Both the position numbers and the translations under genes were made by a program. 62,324 bases of DNA from an uncultured Bacilli bacterium (GTDB taxonomy: Bacteria > Bacillota_I > Bacilli_A > RF39 > UBA660), in the NCBI GenBank assembly GCA_947629405.1, contig CANRDL010000001.1, positions 73,502 to 135,825 of the forward strand, written 5' to 3'. Each line of letters opens with the position of its first letter. Positions within the stretch are counted from its first letter, which is position 1. The notes beneath the pieces are model-generated. The model ran no database searches. It was given only the letters and a program-made list of their open reading frames with translations, and was not told the DNA's origin. Positions 36,270-61,207 of the stretch are shown piece after piece.

Positions 36270-37548
36270 TATCGATGAAGAAATTTTATATGAAAAATCA
36301 TCTGCTGGTTTAGATATTTTTATGTTACCAAATAAAAAAGTAAAAAGTTTTTATATAACTTTAAATGTTAAATATGGTTCTTTAATCACATCATTTAAAG
36401 AAAAAAAAGCTAAGAAGTTTATAAATGTTCCAAATGGTATTGCCCATTTTATAGAGCATATGAAATTTTATCAACCAAATGGTGTAACGGCTCATGAATA
36501 TTATAATAAATTAGGTTCAAGTATAAATGCTGCAACTTCTTATAGATATACTTTTTATGAAGTGTATGCAACAACAGAATTTAAAAAGAATTTAGATTAT
36601 TTACTTGAATATGTTTATACTCCCTGTTTTAAAAATGCCGATATTAAAACGGAAAAGGGAATTATAAAAGAAGAAATAAAAATGGGAATAGATAATCCTT
36701 CAACTATGCTTTATATGACAACAAATGAGCTTTTATATCAAAAAGATAATATGAAATATAGTATTGCTGGAGATGTGGAAGATATAAATAAAATTAATTC
36801 TAAAATGCTTCAAGAAGTATACGATCATTTTTATAAACCAGATAATATGTTTTTAGTAATTACAGGTAATTTTAATCCTGAATTAGCTGTTGCGATGATC
36901 AATGAAAAAATGAAGTCATTAAAATTTAGCAATATAGGGGAAGTTGAAATAAAAAAAATTAAGGAACCTTCTACAGTTTCTTTAGATGAAAAAATATTTA
37001 ATATGGATGTAACTTTTCCTAAATTAAAATTATCCTATAAAATGCCCTATAAAAATTTTTCTAAATTAAATCTTACAAATCCGGAATTGTCAGCCTATAT
37101 TAATATTATTTTGAAAAATAAATTTGGTATAACTTCTTCATTTTATCAAAAATTAAATGAAGAACAGTTATTAAGTAGCGGCCTTTATTATAGTTGTCTT
37201 ATTAGAAAAGAAAAAGATTATATTATTATATCTATTGAGACTGAAACTAAGTATCCTGATGATATTCGTAAAAAAATAATAGCTAATTTAAAAAATTTAA
37301 AAGTTGATGAAAAAATACTTGAACGAAGTAAAAAAATATTAATAAGTAATGCGGTTTTAAGAACTGATTCTATTCAAGTTATGAATGCCTCAATTCAAAA
37401 TGACATAGTGATGTTTGATGAAATTATGCAAGATGAATACCAAATGTATAAAAATTTAAATATGACTACTTTAAATAAAGTTCTTAAATGTTTAAATTTT
37501 TCTAAAAAAGTATATGTTCAAATTAATCCAATAGATAATCAAGACTAG
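36247..37548 (+). CDS. M16 family zinc peptidase (active-site subunit)
   Basis: GIAHFIEHMKF carries the HxxEH zinc motif. ATG 36247 follows GGAGG. Confidence 0.85.
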   Translation: MKKITLNNIDEEILYEKSSAGLDIFMLPNKKVKSFYITLNVKYGSLITSFKEKKAKKFINVPNGIAHFIEHMKFYQPNGVTAHEYYNKLGSSINAATSYRYTFYEVYATTEFKKNLDYLLEYVYTPCFKNADIKTEKGIIKEEIKMGIDNPSTMLYMTTNELLYQKDNMKYSIAGDVEDINKINSKMLQEVYDHFYKPDNMFLVITGNFNPELAVAMINEKMKSLKFSNIGEVEIKKIKEPSTVSLDEKIFNMDVTFPKLKLSYKMPYKNFSKLNLTNPELSAYINIILKNKFGITSSFYQKLNEEQLLSSGLYYSCLIRKEKDYIIISIETETKYPDDIRKKIIANLKNLKVDEKILERSKKILISNAVLRTDSIQVMNASIQNDIVMFDEIMQDEYQMYKNLNMTTLNKVLKCLNFSKKVYVQINPIDNQD

Positions 37549-37572
37549 TTCTTGATTTTTTTTTTAAAATAA

Positions 37573-37795
37573 ATTCGACAAAAAATGGCAAAAATTTCCA
37601 CAAAAACTTGACAGGGGGGGGTCTATTATATAATTTCCTTAGAAAGTAAGGAAATACTATGAAGAAAAATAAACTAAAAGTAGAATTAAAAAAATATCTT
37701 AGCCAAAAAGAAAAGATAAAAAATACCTTTATAAGCTCATGTATTATTCTAGTAGTCCTTACTTTTTTTATCTTTATAACATATTCATACTTTAT
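37573..37795 (+). repeat. copy 1 of a 223-bp direct repeat (promoter plus the first 137 nt of coding sequence)
   Basis: It matches 38926-39148 at a constant offset of 1353 nt. I saw only 3 substitutions, all upstream of the -35 element. The 137 coding nt are identical. Confidence 0.9.
37608..37634 (+). promoter_or_regulatory. TTGACA-G8-TCTATTA-TATAAT promoter with a homopolymeric G tract in the spacer
   Basis: TTGACA is at 37608-37613, the G8 run at 37614-37621 and TATAAT at 37629-37634. The spacer is 15 nt as sequenced. Confidence 0.65.
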
Positions 37796-38924
37796 AAATA
37801 AAACAGGAGAAATAGAAGTAGGAAATTTTAATTCAAGTATACCTGATGTTGAAATAATAAATAAAGAAATAGTTAAAAATACCAATAATCGACAAGTTAT
37901 ATATACAATAAAAAATAACTCAAGTAGTTATACGTATTCTTATAGTTTGTTTTATAAAATAAAAGGAACTAGAATAGCAAGTATATTTTATAAAATACCA
38001 AGTAAAGAATATTCCCATCCGGAAGGAATAATAAAACCAAATGAAACTAAAAAAATATTTCTTTTATCAAGTCCGGATACCAATCATTCTTATTTACAAA
38101 ATGATTTAACCACCGATTCTTGGGATTTTCAACTTTATAGTGGATATGAATATTCAAAGCCTAAAATAGAAGGAGGATATCAAAAAATAAATTATTCTTT
38201 ACTTTCAGAAACTGCTGAATTAAAAAATTTAAATCCATCAATAGGAACATTATCTCCTAACTTTAATTCAAGTACATTAAGTTATGAGTTACATATTCCA
38301 TCTTCTGTAACTATAACTACTATAGAGTTAACTCCAGAAATATCTAATAATGGTGAAATAGATGATAAAACAATTACTATATCGTATAATGCAAATACTT
38401 ATAGATATAATGTAGATAAAAAAATAAAATTATATGCTGAAGATGGAACTTATTTAAAAACATATACGATTAGTACTATAATAAGGGATGTTGATAATGA
38501 TGAAGATTTAAATAAAATATTTGGTAACGGAAAAATACAAAGTATTGTTTTTTTAAGTCGAAATAATCAACCAATTTTTGTAAATGGTACAAATATAGGA
38601 TTTGAAGCTGGCTCAACTCTAACTATCTATGTTCCTTTAAAGTATCAAAATTTAACAACATTTAAAAATTGTATTATAAAATGGTCATATGTAGATGGAC
38701 AAAATTTTCTTTATGAAAATAACAAAGATTGGTATTATTCTTCTACAATTGTTACTGAATCTGGAGGAATATTAAATCATTACGATTCAACTAGTTTTGC
38801 TATTCCTGGTGATTATAATTATTATGAGTTAATGGGACTTACCTATGATTTACATATTGATTATTATCGATATGGGCAACATAGCACTGGTCCAACTTAT
38901 CATATAAAATTTAAAACTCATTAA
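37659..38924 (+). CDS. signal-anchored surface protein, variable family member 1 (contains a cadherin-like beta-sandwich-type module)
   Basis: The basic N-terminus plus TM anchor (aa 1-46) is identical to the next gene. A LKNLNPSIGTLSPNFNSSTLSYELHIP module and the shared KLYAEDGTY block are present. The C-terminal third is unique. Confidence 0.7.
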   Translation: MKKNKLKVELKKYLSQKEKIKNTFISSCIILVVLTFFIFITYSYFINKTGEIEVGNFNSSIPDVEIINKEIVKNTNNRQVIYTIKNNSSSYTYSYSLFYKIKGTRIASIFYKIPSKEYSHPEGIIKPNETKKIFLLSSPDTNHSYLQNDLTTDSWDFQLYSGYEYSKPKIEGGYQKINYSLLSETAELKNLNPSIGTLSPNFNSSTLSYELHIPSSVTITTIELTPEISNNGEIDDKTITISYNANTYRYNVDKKIKLYAEDGTYLKTYTISTIIRDVDNDEDLNKIFGNGKIQSIVFLSRNNQPIFVNGTNIGFEAGSTLTIYVPLKYQNLTTFKNCIIKWSYVDGQNFLYENNKDWYYSSTIVTESGGILNHYDSTSFAIPGDYNYYELMGLTYDLHIDYYRYGQHSTGPTYHIKFKTH

Positions 38925-38925
38925 G

Positions 38926-39148
38926 ATTCGACAAAAAATGGCAAATTTTTCCACAAAAGCTTGACAGGGGGGGGTCTATTATATAATTTCCTTAGAAAGT
39001 AAGGAAATACTATGAAGAAAAATAAACTAAAAGTAGAATTAAAAAAATATCTTAGCCAAAAAGAAAAGATAAAAAATACCTTTATAAGCTCATGTATTAT
39101 TCTAGTAGTCCTTACTTTTTTTATCTTTATAACATATTCATACTTTAT
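38926..39148 (+). repeat. copy 2 of the 223-bp direct repeat
   Basis: See copy 1. It starts 2 nt after the stop codon of the first paralog. Confidence 0.9.
38961..38987 (+). promoter_or_regulatory. second TTGACA-G8-TATAAT promoter
   Basis: TTGACA is at 38961-38966, the G8 run at 38967-38974 and TATAAT at 38982-38987. The spacer is 15 nt. Confidence 0.65.
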
Positions 39149-40307
39149 CAAAAATTCTGGAGAAATAGATGTAGGAAATACTTATGCAGCAATACCAAAT
39201 AAGGATGTTACAATAATAAAAAGAGGAGAAGAAGTTCCAAATAGTAATAATCAACAATATATATATACAATCAAAAATAATTCCCATACAAATACCTATT
39301 CATATAATTTAAGTTATCAAGATAAATCATCAGGTCGTTTTCGTAAAATATATTATAAAATACCAAGTAAAGAGTATTCTCATCCAGAAGGAATAATTAA
39401 AGCTGGTGAGGAGAAAAAAATTTATTTAATATTTGAACAGGGGATAACCAAAGAAGTATTAGGAGAAATATACAATCAAAATGGTGTATGGAATGGAACA
39501 ACAGGACCTTTTTATTTTAAAGTATTTTCAAATTATGAGTATACACCACCTAAAGTAGAAGAAAATTATGTAAAAATAGAATATTCACCTCTTTCAGAAA
39601 CTACTGAATTAACCGATTTAAAAAGTTATAGTGTTGGCTATTTAATCCCATTATTTAATAGTAATATTTTAAATTATGATTTATATCTCCCAGAATATTA
39701 TTCTGATGAAGCAGTTTATTTTAAACCCACTTTAACCAATAATGGTAAAGTTTTAAATAATAAAATTGATATATATGGCAATAGTTATAGATTTAACCGA
39801 GAAATAAAATTATATGCTGAAGATGGAACATATGTAAAAAGTTATAAAATAAATAATATAAATGAAAAAGAACCAAAAGGTAATATATATAGAATTTGGA
39901 TGGAAAGTGCTCAAGGTAAAGTTTTAGGTGAAGCATTTCCTGGTAAATTATCTAGTAATGAAAATTCTAAAATAGTTGATGTAACTTTATCAGTTAAAAA
40001 TAGTGAAACAACTGAAAATTATATATATTTTAATTTCACAGATTTTAATAATTATTTAAAAAAATATTATAGAAATTATTATGTTTTCTCTGTCGAAAAG
40101 TTAATTGGCAATAATTATGCTGATACTTCAGCTTCAGATCTTTTTGATCCAACTGGAAAAATATATGAATCTAGAGATTCATTAAAATTTAAACTTCATC
40201 ATTTCTTCTATAGTGACAAATATCAAATAAAAATATATATAAATTCAACATCTTCAAGTAATTTACTTAAAACATATAATATTTCATTTCAATCTCAAAA
40301 TTCTTAA
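39012..40307 (+). CDS. signal-anchored surface protein, variable family member 2
   Basis: The N-terminal 46 aa are identical to member 1. The middle is moderately similar (YYKIPSKEYSHPEGIIK, LSETTEL, KLYAEDGTY). The C-terminal third is unrelated. Confidence 0.7.
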   Translation: MKKNKLKVELKKYLSQKEKIKNTFISSCIILVVLTFFIFITYSYFIKNSGEIDVGNTYAAIPNKDVTIIKRGEEVPNSNNQQYIYTIKNNSHTNTYSYNLSYQDKSSGRFRKIYYKIPSKEYSHPEGIIKAGEEKKIYLIFEQGITKEVLGEIYNQNGVWNGTTGPFYFKVFSNYEYTPPKVEENYVKIEYSPLSETTELTDLKSYSVGYLIPLFNSNILNYDLYLPEYYSDEAVYFKPTLTNNGKVLNNKIDIYGNSYRFNREIKLYAEDGTYVKSYKINNINEKEPKGNIYRIWMESAQGKVLGEAFPGKLSSNENSKIVDVTLSVKNSETTENYIYFNFTDFNNYLKKYYRNYYVFSVEKLIGNNYADTSASDLFDPTGKIYESRDSLKFKLHHFFYSDKYQIKIYINSTSSSNLLKTYNISFQSQNS

Positions 40308-40360
40308 TTTCATATTTATTTTTTTTAAAAAATTTATTAAAATTAATTATGGTGATATTA

Positions 40361-42490
40361 ATGAATAAAGAAATAATAGATGAAATTAGTCAAAGTGAAA
40401 ATATTATGCCAAAACAAATTGAGGCAGTTTTAAAATTATTAAGTGAAGGTAATACCATTCCTTTTATTGCTAGATATAGAAAAGAAGCAACTAATAATTT
40501 AAATGAAGAAGAAATTAGAAAAATAGAAATAGTTTATACTGCTAAATTAAATTTACTTAACAAAAAGAACGATGTAATTAGATTAATTGATGAAAAGGGT
40601 TTATTAACTGAAGAAATTAAAAATAATATTTTGAATGCAACTAAATTAGTGGAAATTGAAGATATTTATCGACCTTTTAAAGAAAAGAAAAAAACGAAAG
40701 CAACCGAAGCGTTAAACAATGGTTTAGAGCCACTTGCTAAAATGATATTATCTTTTCCTACCAATGGTGATATTAATTCATTATGTCAAAAATTTATTAA
40801 TGACAAAGTAAAAACTATAGAAAAAGCAGTCGAAGGTGCTTCATATATTATTGCTGAATGGATTTCAGATAATGCTAGTTATCGAAAGTATATTAGATCA
40901 AATATATTTAAATTTGGCATATTGATAGCTAAATTAAAAAAAGATGCTGTAGATGAAGATAGTAAATATGCAATGTATTATGATTATGAAGAACCAATAA
41001 AGTCTATTAAGCCACATCGAATATTAGCTATAAATAGAGGTGAAAAAGAAAAAATATTAACAGTATCAATCAAAATAGATAATAAATATATACTTGAAAA
41101 TTTAGAAAGAAAAATAATAAAAAATCCTAATAGTTTTGTTTGCGATATTGTAAAAAATTCTATATCAGATGCTTATAAAAGATTAATTTTTCCTAGTGTC
41201 GAAAGAGAAATTCGAAAAGAATTAAAGGAAAAAGCGGAAGAAAAAGCAATTGAAAATTTTTCAGAAAATTTAGAAAATCTTTTATTAACGCCACCAATTA
41301 AAGAAAAGGTTGTTTTAGGATTTGATCCGGCTTATAGAACAGGTTGTAAATTAGCAGTTTTAGATAAAATGGGAAATGTTTTAGAAATTGCGGTAATTTA
41401 TCCTACTAAGCCTAATGAAAAAATTAAAGAATCAGAAGAAATATTACTTAAACTTATTGATAAATATAATATTGATGTTATTGCTATTGGTAATGGAACA
41501 GCATCTAGAGAAAGTGAAAAGTTTGTTGCTAATACAATAAAAAAAGCAAATAAAAAAGTTGAATATGTTATAGTTTCAGAAGCAGGAGCATCAGTATATT
41601 CTGCATCTTCATTAGCAATTTCCGAATTTCCTAATTTATCCGTAGAAAAAAGAAGTGCTATAAGTATTGGAAGAAGACTTCAAGATGCTTTATCAGAACT
41701 GGTTAAAATAGATCCAAAAAGCATAGGTGTAGGACTTTATCAACATGACATTACAAGTAAAGCTTTAGATGAATCATTAAATTTTGTGGTGTTAAAAACC
41801 GTTAATAGTATTGGGGTTAATTTAAATACTGCATCTGCTTCTATTCTTTCCTATATTTCCGGACTTACTAAAAAAGTTATTAAAGAAATAATTGATTATC
41901 GAAAAGATAATAAATTTAAAAAAAGAGAAGATTTAAAAAAATTAAAATCTGTAAATGAAAAAATATATGAACAATCAATTGGTTTTTTAAGAATAATTGA
42001 TGGGGAAAATATTTTAGATAAAACTTCTATACATCCGGATTATTATGATAAAGTAAATAAAATGTTAGAAGATTTACAAATTAATCTAAAAGACATTGGT
42101 CAAGAAAATATAAAAGAAAAAATAAGTAATGTTAATTATGAAGATTATGGACTTGATAAGTATACTTTTTCCGATATAAAAAAATCATTAATAAGTCCTA
42201 TGTGGGACCCTCGAGATAATTTAGCAGCTCCTATTTTAAAAAGTGATATTTTAACTATTGATGATTTAAAAATAGGTGATACATTGCAAGGTACTGTTAG
42301 AAATGTTGTAGATTTTGGTGCATTTATTGATATTGGATTACATAATGATGGTTTAATTCATGTATCAAAAATATCTAATAATTATATAAAAGATCCCAAA
42401 GATATTTTAAGTGTGGGGCAAATTGTTGAAGTAAAAGTAATTGATATTAATAAAGAAAATGAACGAGTATCATTAAGCATGATAGAGTAA
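40361..42490 (+). CDS. tex: Tex-like transcription accessory protein with a C-terminal S1 domain
   Basis: IPFIARYRKEATNNL, a YqgF-like GFDPAYRTGCKLAVLD motif, HhH repeats, and a C-terminal S1 domain (GTVRNVVDFGAFIDIG). Confidence 0.9.
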   Translation: MNKEIIDEISQSENIMPKQIEAVLKLLSEGNTIPFIARYRKEATNNLNEEEIRKIEIVYTAKLNLLNKKNDVIRLIDEKGLLTEEIKNNILNATKLVEIEDIYRPFKEKKKTKATEALNNGLEPLAKMILSFPTNGDINSLCQKFINDKVKTIEKAVEGASYIIAEWISDNASYRKYIRSNIFKFGILIAKLKKDAVDEDSKYAMYYDYEEPIKSIKPHRILAINRGEKEKILTVSIKIDNKYILENLERKIIKNPNSFVCDIVKNSISDAYKRLIFPSVEREIRKELKEKAEEKAIENFSENLENLLLTPPIKEKVVLGFDPAYRTGCKLAVLDKMGNVLEIAVIYPTKPNEKIKESEEILLKLIDKYNIDVIAIGNGTASRESEKFVANTIKKANKKVEYVIVSEAGASVYSASSLAISEFPNLSVEKRSAISIGRRLQDALSELVKIDPKSIGVGLYQHDITSKALDESLNFVVLKTVNSIGVNLNTASASILSYISGLTKKVIKEIIDYRKDNKFKKREDLKKLKSVNEKIYEQSIGFLRIIDGENILDKTSIHPDYYDKVNKMLEDLQINLKDIGQENIKEKISNVNYEDYGLDKYTFSDIKKSLISPMWDPRDNLAAPILKSDILTIDDLKIGDTLQGTVRNVVDFGAFIDIGLHNDGLIHVSKISNNYIKDPKDILSVGQIVEVKVIDINKENERVSLSMIE

Positions 42491-46272: not shown

Positions 46273-46391
46273 AATACTGCAATATTGATTTTTTACAAAG
46301 ATATGTAAAAATATGTAAAAAAAAAAGAGAATTTTAATAATTTTACATAATAAATATGTTATACTTTTTATATAATAAGGAGGATAAAAAT

Positions 46392-46853
46392 ATGGAAAAA
46401 GCAAAAACTAATGAGTTGGTTGATAATGTAGCTAATGAAATTTTTAATCATTTGCTTATAAAAAATTTAGAAAGAGATTGTAAAGGTAGAATGACTATGC
46501 TACAAAGTGTAGCTTATACTTATCCAAATTTAGGTCTTAAAGAAGGAAGTTCAAAAGATATTAAAATTACTGAATTAGTTAATAAAAAAATTGATGAATA
46601 TGAAGAAACAAAAAATGTTTCTCAAGTACCTGAAGAACAATTAAATAATATTGCTGAACAAGTATTTAATCTTAAATTACAAAAAGAATCAGAAAAAAAT
46701 GATCCTGATTCAGCAATGTCATTATTGATAAGTGCAGCACTTGGTTATCCTAATTTTGGAATTAGAATTGGAACAATCGATGATAAAGTATTAACGGAAT
46801 TAATTAATGCAAAGGTTAATGAATATAATAAATCAAAAAACAAAACCATATAA
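46392..46853 (+). CDS. hypothetical protein with an internal tandem duplication of about 65 aa
   Basis: AAGGAGGA lies before ATG 46392. The two halves align: VANEIFNHLL...YTYPNLGLKEGSSKDIKITELVNKKIDEYEETKN against IAEQVFNLKL...LGYPNFGIRIGTIDDKVLTELINAKVNEYNKSKN. Confidence 0.55.
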   Translation: MEKAKTNELVDNVANEIFNHLLIKNLERDCKGRMTMLQSVAYTYPNLGLKEGSSKDIKITELVNKKIDEYEETKNVSQVPEEQLNNIAEQVFNLKLQKESEKNDPDSAMSLLISAALGYPNFGIRIGTIDDKVLTELINAKVNEYNKSKNKTI

Positions 46854-47403
46854 TTCTCTATATGATTTATTAAATGAATATGCCGATGATGATATTAACT
46901 TTTTAAAAAATACAAAAGAATATAAAGATTTAGATAATTATTTTAAATCTTTTTTTGGTGTTGATTTTACCTATGACCAAATTCACAAATTATTTTATAA
47001 TTGTTTTATTTATAAAAATTATATAATAAAATTTTCATCGCAAAAAATTCCTATAAATTTAGAAAAAATGCCAGAATTAGTAAATAGTTATTTTCGCCAA
47101 AATTATACCTTTAAGGATGAAGATATCATAAAATTAAATTTAGGAGTAGAAATTCAGAAATATTTAAAAAATGCCAGTTATTGTAATGAAGAAGAAATAT
47201 TTCAACTTTACAAATCACTTAGAAACAAAGGATACATATGGATGGATGCAAACATAGGAAATGCCTTAAAATATAAAGATAAATGTTATATAGTCGATTT
47301 AGAATTTATATATCCAGAAAAAGAGGCTATTTATATTAATCAGTCTAAAATGTCTAAAGAATTTGAAATAAGATATAAAAATGAAAGTTCTAATTACAAA
47401 TAA
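46807..47403 (+). CDS. hypothetical protein, weakly protein-kinase-fold-like
   Basis: YIIKF (possible VAIK-type Lys) and GYIWMDANIGNAL...YIVDLEF (possible catalytic and DFG-like Asp) are present. The start is uncertain (46807 or 46819) and overlaps the previous gene. Confidence 0.45.
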   Translation: MQRLMNIINQKTKPYNSLYDLLNEYADDDINFLKNTKEYKDLDNYFKSFFGVDFTYDQIHKLFYNCFIYKNYIIKFSSQKIPINLEKMPELVNSYFRQNYTFKDEDIIKLNLGVEIQKYLKNASYCNEEEIFQLYKSLRNKGYIWMDANIGNALKYKDKCYIVDLEFIYPEKEAIYINQSKMSKEFEIRYKNESSNYK

Positions 47404-56560: not shown

Positions 56561-59500
56561 ATGAAATTAGATACTATTTATACTTATTTTAGTGATTATT
56601 CAGAAGAAAATGTAAATAAAATGTTATCATTTCTAACTGATAAAGAAATGGAGTTAATTAAAATTAGGTTTGGAAATAACTTAAAGGAGCAATTAGATAG
56701 TCAAAACGTTCCTAAAAAAGTTAATACTTCGAAATTTTATAATGAATTTTATAAATCACTAGTTCCAAAAATGAGAAATATTCTTAAAGAACTTACTAAA
56801 AATAATAATTTTTCTGAAGAAAAAATTAACGCTGCTATTAAATTATATTATAAAATTCATAAAAATTTATTTGTTTCTGATGATTTAGTTTATAATAGAG
56901 TGAAAATTGGTAAATATCTTCTTTCTAAAAAAAAGGAATATCATAATAAGACTATAGATATTGAATCATTTATTTTTCTTGACTCTTTAAATATGATATG
57001 GGATATAAATAAATTTAATTTAATAAATAGCTTAAAGTATCTAACAAATATAAAATCAGAATTATTATCTACTTTAAATAAAATTGTAAATAATTATGAT
57101 GAAAGTTCTATTGCCCATTTATTAGTTTTTCTTTATAAAAATAAACTAAATAATTATACCTTTTTAAATTGTTTATACGATGCCTCAGTAATATGTCCAA
57201 TTTTGAACAAAAAATTAACTGATGAGGAATACAAAATTTCAATTTTATATTTTAATAATATTGATTTAAATATTATTTTAAACGCATTTAATATTACCAA
57301 AGAAGAATTTAATAATATTAGAAAAAAATCATTAGATATTATTGTAAATAATTCTAGGTTATTAAAAATTAATTTAATTAATAAATCTTTGAAAAATATT
57401 AAACCAATATCAATTGAAAAAACAAAAGATCAAAATTTAAAGATAGATAATTTTAAACCAATTAATAAAAAAGTTACTAAATCTGTCCAACCTGAAAAAA
57501 TAGAAAATAAAAATTTAAATTTAGGTAATACTCCACAAATTAATCATAATGTAAAATCAAGTAAAAAATCTGGTCCAAAATTAAAGAGTATATATGAGCG
57601 ACTATCAGAATATCCACGTGAAAAAGTTGATGAAGTATTAGATAAATTATCCCAGTACGATAAAGAACTACTTAAAATTAACTATGGTGAAGATTTAGAG
57701 CATCCGAAAAGAAATTCAAATTGTAGTAAATATCAAAAAAATAAACTAAATAATATTCTTATACCCAAAATGAAAGATGCTTTAGAAAATCCTGAAAATA
57801 TTGATAGTATTTTAGCTCAAAAAAGTGGGACAAAATTAAAAAGTATATATGAGCGACTATCAGAATATCCTCGAGAAAAAGTTGATGAAGTATTAGATAA
57901 ATTATCTTCGAAAGATAAAGAATTAATTAAAATGAGCTATGGTGAGGATTTAGATAATCCTAAAAGGAATCCAAATTTTAGTCAATATCAAAGAAATAAG
58001 TTAAATATTATTCTTATACCCAAAATGAAAGATGCTTTAGAAAATCCCGAAAATATTGAAAATATATTTGCTAAAAAATCTGGTCCAAAATTAAAAAGTA
58101 TATATGAACGACTATCAGAATATCCTCGAGAAAAAGTTGATGAAGTATTAGATAAATTACCTTCAGAAGATGAAGAATTAATTAAAATGAGCTATGGTGA
58201 AGATTTAGATAATCCTAAAAGAAGTAAAGAGTTTAATGCTTTATACTCGACTAAATTAAATAATATTCTTATACCCAAAATGAAAGAGGCTTTAGAAAAT
58301 CCGGAAAATATCGATAATATATTTGCTCGAAAAAAACGTAATAAAAAATTAAAAAGTATATATGAACGATTTTCAGAATATTCACGTGAACAAGTTGATG
58401 AAGTATTAGACAAGTTACCTCAAAAAGACGAAGAATTAATTAAAATGGGCTATGGTGAAGATTTAGATCATCCGAAAAGAGATCCTAATTTTAGTCAATA
58501 TCAAAAAAATAAACTAAATAATATTCTTATACCCAAAATGAGAGAGGCTTTAGAAAATCCTAAAAATATTGAAAATACATTTGCTAAAAAAGGTGGTCTA
58601 AAATTAAAAAGTATATATGAACGACTATCAGAATATCCTCGAGAAAAAGTTGATGAAGTATTAGATAAATTACCTTCAGAAGATAAAGAATTAATTAAAA
58701 TTTGTTATGGTGAAGATTTAGATCATCCTAAAAGAGGGGAAAAATTTAATCATTGTAATAAAAATAAATTAAATAATATTCTTATACCCAAAATGAGAGA
58801 AGCTTTAGAAAATCCCGAAAATATTGATAATATATTTGTTCGAAGAAAAAGTGGACCAAAATTAAAAAGTATATATGAACGATTTTCAGAATATTCACGT
58901 GAACAAGTTGATGAAGTATTAGATAAGTTATCTCCAAAAGACGAAGAATTAATTAAAATATGCTATGGTGAAGATTTAGATCATCCTAAAAGAAGTAAAA
59001 AATTTGAAAATTTTCATTCATACAGAATAAATAATATTCTTATTCCAAAAATAAAAGAGGCTTTAGAAAATCCTGAAAATATTGATAATATATTTACTCA
59101 AGAAAGTTATGAAAAACTAAAAAGTATATATGAACGACTATCAGAATATTCACGTGAACAAGTTGATGAAGTATTAGATAAATTACCTTCATATGATAAA
59201 GAATTAATTAAGTTATGTTATGGTGAGGATTTAGATCACCCTAAAAGAGATCTGAGTTTTAAACGATATCATAAAAATAAACTAAATAATACTCTAATAC
59301 CAAAAATGAAAGAAGCTTTAGAAAATCCGGAAAAAATTGATAATATATTGACTAAAAAAGGTGGTCCAAAGTTAAAAAATATATATGAACGATTATCAAA
59401 ATATCCTAGAGAAAAAGTTGATGAAGTATTAGACAAGTTACCTCCAAAAGACAAGAAAATAATTAAGATGTGTTATGGTGAAGATTTAGAGCATCCGAAA

Positions 59501-61207
59501 AGAGATCCGAATTTTAGTATATATCATAAAAATAAACTAAATAGTACTATTATACCTCAAATGAGAGAAGCATTAGAAAACCCTGAAAATATTGATAATA
59601 TATTTGCTCAAAAAAATGGTTCAAAACTAAAAAGTATATATGAACGACTATCAGAATATCCACGTGAACAAATTGATGAAGTACTAGATAAGTTACCTCC
59701 AAAAGACGAAGAATTAATTAAAATATGTTATGGCGAAGATTTAGATCATCCTAAAAGAAGTAAAGAGTTTAAAGTCAATCATTCAAGTAAACTAAATAGA
59801 ATTCTTATACCTCAAATGAAAGAAGCTTTAGAAAATCCTAAAAATATCGATAATATATTTGCTCAAAAAAGTGGGACAAAATTAAAAAGTATATATGAGC
59901 GACTTTCAGAATATCCACGTGAGAAAGTTGATGAAGTATTAGACAAGTTATCTTCAAATGATAAAAAATTAATTAAGTTATGTTATGGTGAAGATTTAGA
60001 TCATCCTAAAAGAAGTGAAAATTTTGTTATTTCTAATTCAGTTAATTTAAATATATCAATTTTACCAAAGATAAGAAAAGCTTTAGAAGATCCTAAAAAT
60101 ATTGATAATATATTAGCTCCAAAAAAATGTGGACCAAAATTAAAAAGTATATATGAACGATTTTCAGAATATTCACGTGAACAAATTGATGAAGTATTAG
60201 ACAAGTTACCTCCAAAAGACGAAGAATTAATTAAAATTTGTTATGGTGAAGATTTAGAGCATCCTAAAAGAAATCCAAGTTTTAGTCGTTATCATAAAAC
60301 TAAACTAAACAATAATCTTATACCTCAAATGAAAGAAGCTTTAGAAAACCCTGAAAATATTGATAATATATTTGCTCAAAAAAGTGGGACAAAATTAAAA
60401 AGTATATATGAACGGTTATCCAAATATCCACGTGAACAAATTGATGAAGTACTAGATAAGTTACCTCCAAAAGACGAAGAATTAATTAAAATATGTTATG
60501 GCGAAGATTTAGATAATCCCAAAAGAAGTAAAGAATTTGAAAAAATTCATTCATACAGAATAAATAATATTCTTTTACCAAAGCTGAGAAAAATTTTAGA
60601 AGATCCTGAAAATATTGATAGCATATTAACAAAAAAATGTGGTCCAAAATTAAAAAGTATATATGAACGACTATCAGAATATCCTCGAGAAAAAGTTGAT
60701 GAAGTATTAGACAAGTTACCTCCAAAAGACAAGGAAATAATTAAAATATGTTATGGTGAGGATTTAGATCACCCTAAAAGAGATCCAAGTTTTAGTTTAT
60801 ATCATAAAAATAAACTAAATAATATTCTTATACCAAAAATTAAAAAAAATTTAGAAAATAAAAATAAAATAAATTATGAATACAAATTATCTCCAAATTC
60901 AACAGATACTAAATTAAAAAATATCATAATAGAAAATGATTTGAAATTAAACAATTTTGGAATATTATTAACCGGTGAATTAAATAACGATGAATTATTA
61001 ATAGCGTTATTAAAATTTGGGGTTAATATTTCTATAAAAGACATAGCTAATTATTTAAATATTAAGGAAATGGATGTAAAAAAAATCATTAAAAAAGTTT
61101 TAATAATATATAAAAAGAATATTAATCAATATATAGATAATATTGTTAAGGATATTGAAAATAATAAAGAACCTTTTGATGAAAGTAATATACATTTATT
61201 AAAATAA
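56561..61207 (+). CDS. 1548-aa repeat protein: a diverged N-terminal unit, a helical region with an HTH-like segment, 13 tandem 85-86-aa sigma-70-region-4-like modules, and a C-terminal region-4-like HTH
   Basis: A single uninterrupted ORF with a GAGGGA ribosome-binding site. No signal peptide or TM helix is present. The unit consensus is KLKSIYERLSEYPREKVDEVLDKLPPKDEELIKICYGEDLDHPKR-x10-LNNILIPKMKEALENPENIDNIFAQKSG. The C-terminal ISIKDIANYLNIKEMDVKKIIKKVL is HTH-like. Confidence 0.8.
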   Translation: MKLDTIYTYFSDYSEENVNKMLSFLTDKEMELIKIRFGNNLKEQLDSQNVPKKVNTSKFYNEFYKSLVPKMRNILKELTKNNNFSEEKINAAIKLYYKIHKNLFVSDDLVYNRVKIGKYLLSKKKEYHNKTIDIESFIFLDSLNMIWDINKFNLINSLKYLTNIKSELLSTLNKIVNNYDESSIAHLLVFLYKNKLNNYTFLNCLYDASVICPILNKKLTDEEYKISILYFNNIDLNIILNAFNITKEEFNNIRKKSLDIIVNNSRLLKINLINKSLKNIKPISIEKTKDQNLKIDNFKPINKKVTKSVQPEKIENKNLNLGNTPQINHNVKSSKKSGPKLKSIYERLSEYPREKVDEVLDKLSQYDKELLKINYGEDLEHPKRNSNCSKYQKNKLNNILIPKMKDALENPENIDSILAQKSGTKLKSIYERLSEYPREKVDEVLDKLSSKDKELIKMSYGEDLDNPKRNPNFSQYQRNKLNIILIPKMKDALENPENIENIFAKKSGPKLKSIYERLSEYPREKVDEVLDKLPSEDEELIKMSYGEDLDNPKRSKEFNALYSTKLNNILIPKMKEALENPENIDNIFARKKRNKKLKSIYERFSEYSREQVDEVLDKLPQKDEELIKMGYGEDLDHPKRDPNFSQYQKNKLNNILIPKMREALENPKNIENTFAKKGGLKLKSIYERLSEYPREKVDEVLDKLPSEDKELIKICYGEDLDHPKRGEKFNHCNKNKLNNILIPKMREALENPENIDNIFVRRKSGPKLKSIYERFSEYSREQVDEVLDKLSPKDEELIKICYGEDLDHPKRSKKFENFHSYRINNILIPKIKEALENPENIDNIFTQESYEKLKSIYERLSEYSREQVDEVLDKLPSYDKELIKLCYGEDLDHPKRDLSFKRYHKNKLNNTLIPKMKEALENPEKIDNILTKKGGPKLKNIYERLSKYPREKVDEVLDKLPPKDKKIIKMCYGEDLEHPKRDPNFSIYHKNKLNSTIIPQMREALENPENIDNIFAQKNGSKLKSIYERLSEYPREQIDEVLDKLPPKDEELIKICYGEDLDHPKRSKEFKVNHSSKLNRILIPQMKEALENPKNIDNIFAQKSGTKLKSIYERLSEYPREKVDEVLDKLSSNDKKLIKLCYGEDLDHPKRSENFVISNSVNLNISILPKIRKALEDPKNIDNILAPKKCGPKLKSIYERFSEYSREQIDEVLDKLPPKDEELIKICYGEDLEHPKRNPSFSRYHKTKLNNNLIPQMKEALENPENIDNIFAQKSGTKLKSIYERLSKYPREQIDEVLDKLPPKDEELIKICYGEDLDNPKRSKEFEKIHSYRINNILLPKLRKILEDPENIDSILTKKCGPKLKSIYERLSEYPREKVDEVLDKLPPKDKEIIKICYGEDLDHPKRDPSFSLYHKNKLNNILIPKIKKNLENKNKINYEYKLSPNSTDTKLKNIIIENDLKLNNFGILLTGELNNDELLIALLKFGVNISIKDIANYLNIKEMDVKKIIKKVLIIYKKNINQYIDNIVKDIENNKEPFDESNIHLLK
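57569..60893 (+). repeat. 13 in-frame tandem repeats with a period of 255 nt (three units of 258 nt)
   Basis: Unit starts were read at 57569, 57824, 58079 ... 58592 ... 60638. The span from the first to the last start is 3069 nt, which equals 9x255 + 3x258. Confidence 0.9.

Follow-up and report, generated by a model that had tools for sequence, protein, structure and literature searches.

A candidate family of variable surface proteins that shares a promoter and signal-anchor module in an uncultured low-GC Bacillota bacterium

Two adjacent genes of the same orientation, which we will term genes A and B, lie in a 62 kb (62,324 nt), 23 % GC stretch of the genome of an uncultured Bacilli bacterium (contig CANRDL010000001.1; this whole stretch is the window below). 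Both begin with a nearly identical module that contains a promoter, a Shine-Dalgarno (SD) sequence, and the first 46 codons. We propose that they are members of a small multigene family, restricted to this lineage, that encodes variable cell-surface proteins, each of which would have a membrane anchor and three immunoglobulin (Ig)-like β-sandwiches. Each gene of the family has its own expression module, consisting of TTGAC(A/T), a run of eight G (G8), TATAAT, a palindrome, an SD sequence, ATG, and 46 codons that hardly vary. Recombination makes use of this identical module and of islands conserved within the genes; it keeps the modules of a genome homogeneous, shuffles N-terminal, middle, and C-terminal domains into mosaics, and alters the number of genes at a locus. 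Also, each module would be a sigma-A promoter whose strength depends on the length of its G tract: slipped-strand mispairing during replication would shift the spacing between the −35 and −10 hexamers (15 nt with G8, 16 nt with G9, and 17 nt with G10), and each copy would switch between low and high transcription independently, as in vlp of Mycoplasma hyorhinis, meningococcal porA, and Bordetella fim. The cells of one population would then display different subsets of the proteins, as a bet-hedge against antibodies, phages, and changing attachment sites. We put the probability of this whole explanation, a variable surface family akin to Vlp or porA with the switch included, at roughly 55 %. 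We are confident of the gene family, its module, and the conversion and mosaicism, while for the G-tract switch itself, which we propose from the sequence and by analogy, the odds seem about even.

Copies of the module and recombination among the genes

The two modules (Table 1) align without gaps at a constant offset of 1353 nt, and 220 of their 223 nt are identical. The mismatches are at 37593, 37594, and 37606 only, all of them 5' of the TTGACA hexamer, and the first coding mismatch between the genes is at nt 138 of the coding sequence (37796); an earlier note on this DNA had described just this near-identity, with coding sequence shared to nt 137. The flanks 5' of 37573 and of 38926 are unrelated to each other. 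The module pattern is found only twice in the window (0.00-0.01 matches are expected), and an Rfam search of the module returned no RNA family. Downstream of the module, the similarity drops: the genes are 47 % identical overall, close to the half that had been estimated from their bodies, and the C-terminal thirds have no significant similarity (E = 0.44). As for the islands that had been listed as common to both, KLYAEDGTY is indeed present in genes A and B, but the first island is YKIPSKEYSHPEGIIK; the residue before it is F in gene A, where gene B has the Y that had been counted as shared.

The identity of the modules exceeds what chance and constraint on the protein would give, because the synonymous sites are frozen too. 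Among conserved degenerate codons, there is a synonymous difference in 1 of 45 within codons 1-46 versus 42 of 150 downstream (binomial P = 7e-6). Therefore, purifying selection on the protein cannot explain the identity of the module.

The earlier note had suggested a search for more copies of the module, and these do exist. In independent metagenome assemblies, we found the module at four or more (at least four) chromosomal loci, with 11 distinct copies. These loci are the M16-peptidase/tex site, as in the window (tandem pairs in L006 and L007 and a single gene in L028); another site with a tandem pair (L008-L011); a site where one gene precedes a 302-aa gene and rpoB (L022-L026); and one where a single gene precedes ftsK (L027). 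Two samples contain two different pairs each (L006 and L010 in ERZ27249088, L007 and L009 in ERZ27249097), which points to at least four copies of the module per genome, with co-existing strains as a possible alternative. More distant members of the family (P0012 and P0021; L001 10001-11209 and L005 439-1677) sit after greA and have an ordinary promoter with a TGTGGTATACT extended −10, no G run, and no palindrome, so the poly-G module is a feature of one subfamily.

These contigs also bear on whether the repeat could come from mis-joining or from duplicated contig ends. In related samples, many short contigs end at the module borders, which might suggest such an artefact, but breaks of this kind are the product of a genuine multi-copy repeat in short-read assemblies. 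Five contigs from four samples (L006-L010) span both modules of a tandem pair, and since these are single contigs in independent assemblies, the repeat is not an assembly artefact. The window copies also differ at three positions and have different flanks. We consider an artefact to be ruled out for practical purposes, and likewise the case, also raised earlier, that there are only two copies without variation in the population.

Several comparisons indicate that the modules of the window were homogenised by gene conversion. Over the first 141 coding nt, there are 2 differences between the window copies, but 10-18 between either of them and any other copy. Both have the derived states MKKNKLK and GAAAAG, which are in none (0/9) of the other distinct copies. 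The ortholog of gene B is the second gene of L007 (P0008, or L007_2), and the divergence of the bodies is 0.040 at nonsynonymous sites (dN) and 0.093 at synonymous sites (dS); in the same comparison of strains, dS is 0.069 for tex and 0.085 for ruvB, which flank the pair. The module of gene B, however, has a dS of 0.28 from that of its ortholog, about three times that of the body. Therefore, the module was overwritten by conversion from a paralog after the strains split. Together with the shared derived states, this bears out the homogenisation of the 5' module that the earlier note had proposed. The ratio dN/dS is 0.44 for the body of gene B, versus 0.05 for tex and 0 for ruvB; by this measure, the family proteins evolve fast.

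A recent tandem duplication could instead have produced the pair, with bodies that diverged fast and a 5' module that was frozen by purifying selection, without any gene conversion. In favour of this, the genes are adjacent and in the same orientation, and distant relatives too retain the N-terminal 46 residues at the protein level. It does not account for the frozen synonymous sites, or for a dS between genes A and B of 0.46-0.84 in the body but 0.04 in the module. Also, the module differs between strains, with both window copies changed together, and the module of gene B is more diverged from its ortholog than the body is. This makes duplication without conversion very improbable.

Recombination is also apparent within the bodies of the genes. 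The second gene of L006 and the first gene of L007 are 98-100 % identical for the first ~540 nt and 45-70 % identical thereafter, and they hold different positions in their pairs. Gene A and the first gene of L006 have alternating blocks of 57-97 % identity, and clustering of segments at 75 % identity shows free combination of the types of N-, middle-, and C-domain. One N-domain type spans both subfamilies, as it is found in a poly-G gene (P0009) and in the ordinary-promoter gene P0012.

The number of genes at a locus varies with the strain (0, 1, or 2), as does their content, which answers the earlier question of whether copy number and cassettes vary in the population. In L012 and L013, the flanks are 97.3-97.8 % identical to the window but the gene pair is missing: BLAST of these loci against the window, together with their sequences, shows that the window's 37610 to ~40088 is replaced by a frameshifted gene for a PlsC-like acyltransferase. 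Only the first 37 nt of module A and, as a frameshifted relic, 219 nt from the 3' end of gene B are left. The left junction is just before the GACA of the −35 hexamer, and the PlsC-like gene (L012 5411-6106, L013 131-826) is split by the frameshift into two 88-aa open reading frames (ORFs).

At the M16/tex site in L028, the single gene (P0014, 1171-2724) has a quite different C-terminal region of ~330 aa. P0014 and P0020 keep the module and the N-domain and have this unrelated region after about aa 180, with the motif ...YYFRG.V.NNYV.F....WRILRINGD.TIRLI...; searches of Pfam, NCBIfam, and PADLOC with the ~330-aa region returned no match. In L007, the stretch upstream of the first gene of the pair (1-54) is unrelated to the end of the M16 peptidase and carries a terminator-like hairpin (AATGCACT...AGTGCATT). 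An insertion or a third gene may thus lie upstream; the contig ends at that point.

None of the locus junctions is a simple module-to-module crossover. So, deletion or amplification by recombination between the direct repeats, as had been suggested, is plausible given the gene numbers, but no junction has the form that its simplest version predicts. Overall, the evidence from these comparisons shows that homologous recombination and gene conversion act on the family.

Another way to obtain a constant 5' module in front of diverse, mosaic bodies would be an expression site with silent cassettes (as in pilE/pilS or vlsE) or an invertible promoter or shufflon, in which a single promoter serves exchangeable, promoterless cassettes. 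However, all 11 distinct copies are complete, with their own promoter, SD, and ATG, and all are oriented as their neighbours are. Except for the decayed relic in L012/L013, there are no truncated cassettes in the window or in the loci that we fetched. We rejected the invertible promoter or shufflon after finding only low-complexity AT-rich inverted matches in 36500-41500; the neighbours there are M16 peptidases, tex, and ruvAB. We therefore think that either arrangement is highly unlikely. As for the exchange of cassettes behind a fixed expression site that the earlier note had raised, domain-sized segments are shuffled, but we found neither promoterless silent cassettes nor a single fixed expression site.

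Table 1. Positions of the gene pair, its modules, and their elements in the window
Feature	Position	Strand	Remarks
Terminator-like AT-rich hairpin	37537..37565	+	AATCAAGA / TCTTGATT, then T10; end of upstream M16-peptidase gene; read directly from the sequence
Module copy A	37573..37795	+	Upstream element, G8 promoter, palindrome, SD, codons 1-46 (cytoplasmic tail and transmembrane anchor, predicted)
−35 hexamer, copy A	37608..37613	+	TTGACA, perfect consensus; TTGACA or TTGACT in all 11 distinct copies
G8 homopolymer, copy A	37614..37621	+	In promoter spacer; candidate slipped-strand switch
−10 hexamer, copy A	37629..37634	+	TATAAT, perfect consensus; invariant in all copies
Palindrome, copy A	37634..37654	+	Perfect, TTTCCTTA-GAAAG-TAAGGAAA (8-5-8); last base of −10 through predicted start site to SD
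Gene A	37659..38924	+	ORF; 421 aa
Module copy B	38926..39148	+	Starts 2 nt past gene A stop codon
−35 hexamer, copy B	38961-38966	+	
G8 homopolymer, copy B	38967-38974	+	
−10 hexamer, copy B	38982-38987	+	
Palindrome, copy B	38987-39007	+	
Gene B	39012..40307	+	431 aa; architecture as in gene A
3' end of gene B	40089..40307	+	Persists as frameshifted relic in L012/L013

The G tract in the promoter spacer

The −35 and −10 hexamers of the predicted promoter are separated by GGGGGGGGTCTATTA, a 15-nt spacer that opens with eight G. The earlier note did not remark on this run. The two G8 tracts (Table 1) are the only runs of six or more G in the window, where 0.006 runs of exactly G8 and 0.007 runs of G8 or longer are expected. 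The window has three other TTGAC[AT]-N-TATAAT sites (3793, 25392, 47941 (minus strand)), all of them just upstream of a gene and all with a 17-nt spacer. Thus, the module promoter has ideal hexamers but a spacing that is 2 nt below this organism's usual 17, and its adjustable part would be the homopolymer.

All 11 distinct copies have a G tract between their −35 and −10 hexamers. In the consensus assemblies, its length is G8 in 10 copies and G9 in one (the second gene of L006). With TTGACA and G8, the spacer is 15 nt in all copies. Three different routes lead to 16 nt: G9; an extra T after the tract, with TTGACT (L006 gene 1, L007 gene 1, and L022); or a post-tract segment that begins with AC (ACTTATTA), with TTGACT (L028). 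Thus, the length of the spacer varies only at the G tract and its borders. The tract is uninterrupted in 11/11 copies, despite the 23 % GC of the genome and a divergence of up to 13 % in the coding part of the module, which argues that the tract is kept by selection.

The palindrome that follows the −10 hexamer is invariant in every copy, hence there is no covariation to read. It is a possible operator, to judge from its sequence and position. Folded as RNA, it has an energy of −10.7 kcal/mol (z = −2.4), and a hairpin in the mRNA is an alternative only if transcription starts further upstream. We rejected the hairpin as the main explanation because, with transcription predicted to start near 37641-37642, the left arm would be missing from the transcript. 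The upstream third of the module (37573-37607 and 38926-38960; ATTCGACAAAAAATGGCAAAWWTTTCCACAAAA) is common to the copies at the M16/tex and rpoB sites; those at the second tandem pair and at ftsK lack it, as does the single gene of L028 at M16/tex. This element holds ATTTCC, which echoes the half-site of the palindrome, and all three mismatches between copies A and B fall in it.

No terminator separates gene A, whose stop codon ends at 38924, from module B, which starts at 38926. Upstream of module A, the hairpin at the end of the M16-peptidase gene would insulate the module from upstream transcription, if it works as its sequence suggests; it is weak, with only 2 G-C pairs, and so was not called by a consensus scan for terminators.

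Several observations count against our proposal. First, and as the main argument against frequent switching, the same locus in three to five metagenomes always has G8 (consensus), and there is no copy with the 17-nt spacer that we predict to be optimal. This uniformity of tract length also fits a fixed, functionally constrained G element. On the other hand, a uniform consensus of G8 would also be expected if each of several copies is "on" in a minority of cells only. Second, the 46-residue N-terminus is kept as protein in distant relatives that have ordinary promoters. Therefore, the conservation of the module partly reflects the function of the protein.

The main rival to a G-tract switch is that G8 is a fixed element of a regulated promoter: transcription would be constitutively low or under a dedicated regulator, and variation would come from recombination among the genes only. 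The regulator could be a dimer on the TTTCCTTA-N5-TAAGGAAA palindrome that covers the start site, or else a factor specific for the G run. In favour of this are the near-invariance of tract length across loci, strains, and samples (10 of G8, 1 of G9), the perfect 8-5-8 palindrome that covers the start site and the SD without change in any copy, and the ATTTCC in the upstream element that several copies conserve. However, a 15-nt spacer between perfect hexamers is odd for a constitutive promoter, as the other strong promoters have 17 nt, and the only length polymorphisms in the core of the module are at the tract. Also, no known class of regulator is tied to such a G run, and runs of eight or more G are intrinsically unstable in other AT-rich bacteria (PMC3401435). 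We consider the fixed element to be unlikely, but it deserves to be taken seriously.

Protein architecture and genomic setting

The AlphaFold model of gene A, made with the family alignment, has a mean predicted local distance difference test (pLDDT) score of 79.8. It contains one long helix (aa 16-47) and then β-sandwich domains at about aa 60-165, 185-277, and 290-420. With the whole model, Foldseek found only strings of fibronectin type III (FN3), cadherin, or Ig domains, which are generic β-sandwich matches. The N-domain modelled alone (pLDDT 82) had no significant match in the PDB; the top matches were PapD-like Ig folds with a template-modelling (TM) score of ~0.5.

Lysines make up 10 of the first 22 residues, and a hydrophobic stretch follows them. 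We infer that the N-terminus is an uncleaved N-in/C-out signal anchor with a short, lysine-rich cytoplasmic tail, and the proteins of the family are predicted to be on the cell surface. We rejected a lipoprotein signal because ISSC (aa 25-28) is preceded by highly charged sequence rather than by an h-region, the hydrophobic residues lie beyond the Cys, and the AlphaFold model has a single long helix at aa 16-47. A leader like those of type IV pilins was also rejected, as the sequence does not have a G/FTLxE motif. Tandem coding repeats, which might allow for variation in size, were sought with Tandem Repeats Finder in 37400-40500, and only short, low-score, AT-rich rows were found.

The middle domain (about aa 185-277) is, by its profile matches, probably of the Cadherin-like β-sandwich type. 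This is because PF12733 matches gene A below threshold (aa 198-272, 21.2 bits versus a cut-off of 24.2; gene B has no match), because the remote matches P0023 and P0024 carry PF12733, and because the family profile matches hundreds of giant multi-repeat proteins at profile positions ~180-273. The middle domain resembles the type found in PF12733 proteins, but those are very large and have many repeats, whereas the window family consists of an anchor, an N-domain, one PF12733-type domain, and a variable C-domain. Beyond the sub-threshold match to PF12733, searches of Pfam, NCBIfam, PADLOC, and PDB sequences gave no family for the proteins, and none of the PADLOC models for anti-phage defence matched P0014 or the products of genes A and B.

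The family is an orphan that is restricted to this lineage. A search of 5.8 billion proteins yielded ~22 relatives, nearly all from one series of ENA metagenome assemblies, and the full-length architecture is present in only ~15 of 1.84 billion clusters (clustered at 50 % identity). Altogether, sightings of the family are limited to one ENA assembly set, a few Logan assemblies, and two NCBI records. Scans for the exact module pattern found no match in GTDB genome representatives, JGI metagenome contigs, or IMG/VR viral contigs; a protein-pattern scan of the JGI metagenomes found no relatives; and look-ups of contigs by exact protein found no match for gene A, gene B, or P0003.

The window is ordinary chromosome. 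It encodes MreC, trigger factor, a sigma factor, MurD, glycosyltransferases, Wzy, and UDG, as well as two M16 peptidases, Tex, RuvAB, QueA, Tgt, and signal peptidase. Outside the species, the highest identity of Tex to any protein is 73 %, and its nearest named matches (66-69 %) are from metagenome-assembled genomes that are labelled Firmicutes/Bacilli bacterium or Clostridium sp. CAG:417. The host is an uncultured, walled, low-GC member of the Bacillota.

Two other regions of the window are also repetitive or variable. An ORF of 1548 aa without a signal peptide (56561-61207, + strand) has a unit of 255/258 nt (85/86 aa) in at least 13 tandem copies, which are 70-89 % identical at the DNA level. 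It has many weak matches to Pfam Sigma-70 region 4 (E = 1.9e-35 for the whole protein, with no single stretch passing) and looks like an array of helix-turn-helix units similar to sigma-70 region 4. Also, L012/L013 lack 46286-47370 (~1.1 kb) between flanks that are ~97.5 % identical to those in the window, which makes this a second indel that varies with the strain, 6 kb away from the gene pair; its two small ORFs are 46356-46853 (no Pfam match) and 46807-47403.

Relation to known switching systems

In its proposed mode of action, the family seems closest to the Vlp system of Mycoplasma (Mesomycoplasma) hyorhinis. The vlp genes reportedly have a highly conserved 5' non-coding region and signal sequence, with divergent mature regions. 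As in the window family, these are clustered genes, each with its own homopolymer-bearing promoter, in a low-GC lineage of the Bacillota/Mollicutes radiation. Changes in the length of a poly(A) tract in the vlp promoters switch transcription (PMC10502178; PMC3899988), and the number of vlp genes differs between strains (PMC4198240). There are also many differences. The tract is poly(G) in the window family, the signal anchor is uncleaved and has no lipobox context (Vlps have a cleaved lipoprotein signal), and there are none of the coding tandem repeats by which Vlps vary in size. The families have no sequence relationship (no Pfam/NCBIfam match), the organism of the window has a cell wall (MurD, MreC), and switching is only proposed for it.

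The promoter homopolymer also resembles that of Neisseria meningitidis porA (and opc). In porA, a poly-G tract is likewise located between the −35 and −10, and according to the part of PMC3899988 that cites van der Ende 1995, the loss or gain of one G alters transcription via the spacing. However, porA and opc are single-copy genes for outer-membrane porins of a Gram-negative bacterium, without a family-wide module or mosaic ectodomains. In Bordetella fim, the tract sets the distance from the site of the activator BvgA to the −10. The fim2, fim3, and fimX genes of B. pertussis are a small surface-structure family that shares a promoter with a homopolymer, the C-stretch, and independent on/off switching, as described where PMC3899988 cites Willems 1990. 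Their products are fimbrial subunits rather than membrane-anchored Ig-like proteins. The hif genes of Haemophilus influenzae provide another precedent for a repeat in the promoter spacer (PMC3899988; PMC10502178).

For G tracts in a very AT-rich genome, the precedent is Campylobacter jejuni, where tracts of G8-G11 mark phase-variable surface genes and G8 switches at ~4e-4 to 1e-3 per division, mainly by insertion (PMC3401435). In contrast to the tract in our promoter spacer, most of the C. jejuni tracts are inside reading frames and act by frameshift, and the genes are unrelated. The opa family of Neisseria comprises multiple complete genes at dispersed sites; their 5' end is conserved, a simple repeat switches each of them independently, and recombination between the copies makes mosaics. 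Unlike the tract of the window family, the opa repeat (CTCTT) is in the coding region of the leader peptide and acts on translation, and the products are β-barrel outer-membrane proteins.

The window family would be a further, unrelated instance of a kind of system that is already known, in a lineage from which none is known to have been described. We tentatively suggest, at somewhat less than even odds, that a walled, genome-reduced, low-GC lineage of the Bacillota independently evolved a contingency system like the Vlps of mycoplasmas, with at least four dispersed copies of the module, each of which stochastically switches a different mosaic Ig-like surface protein. The consensus would then have a "short spacer" in every copy, as no copy would be on in more than a minority of the cells.

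If the switch is real, a lineage that is known only from metagenomes would use a classic contingency strategy, the stochastic switching of a recombining surface family, which is well studied in the pathogens Mycoplasma, Neisseria, Bordetella, and Campylobacter. To our knowledge, this strategy is hardly documented in uncultured gut-type Bacillota. It would add a new protein family and one of the few phase-variation systems with a promoter homopolymer in a walled Gram-positive commensal. The diversity of the family is under-reported because the multi-copy module of ~200 bp fragments short-read assemblies at exactly these genes. The length of the G tract in each copy would be a marker, directly in metagenomic reads, for bottlenecks and for selection by the host or by phages, and the orphan Ig-like family would be the exposed, selected surface of this organism.

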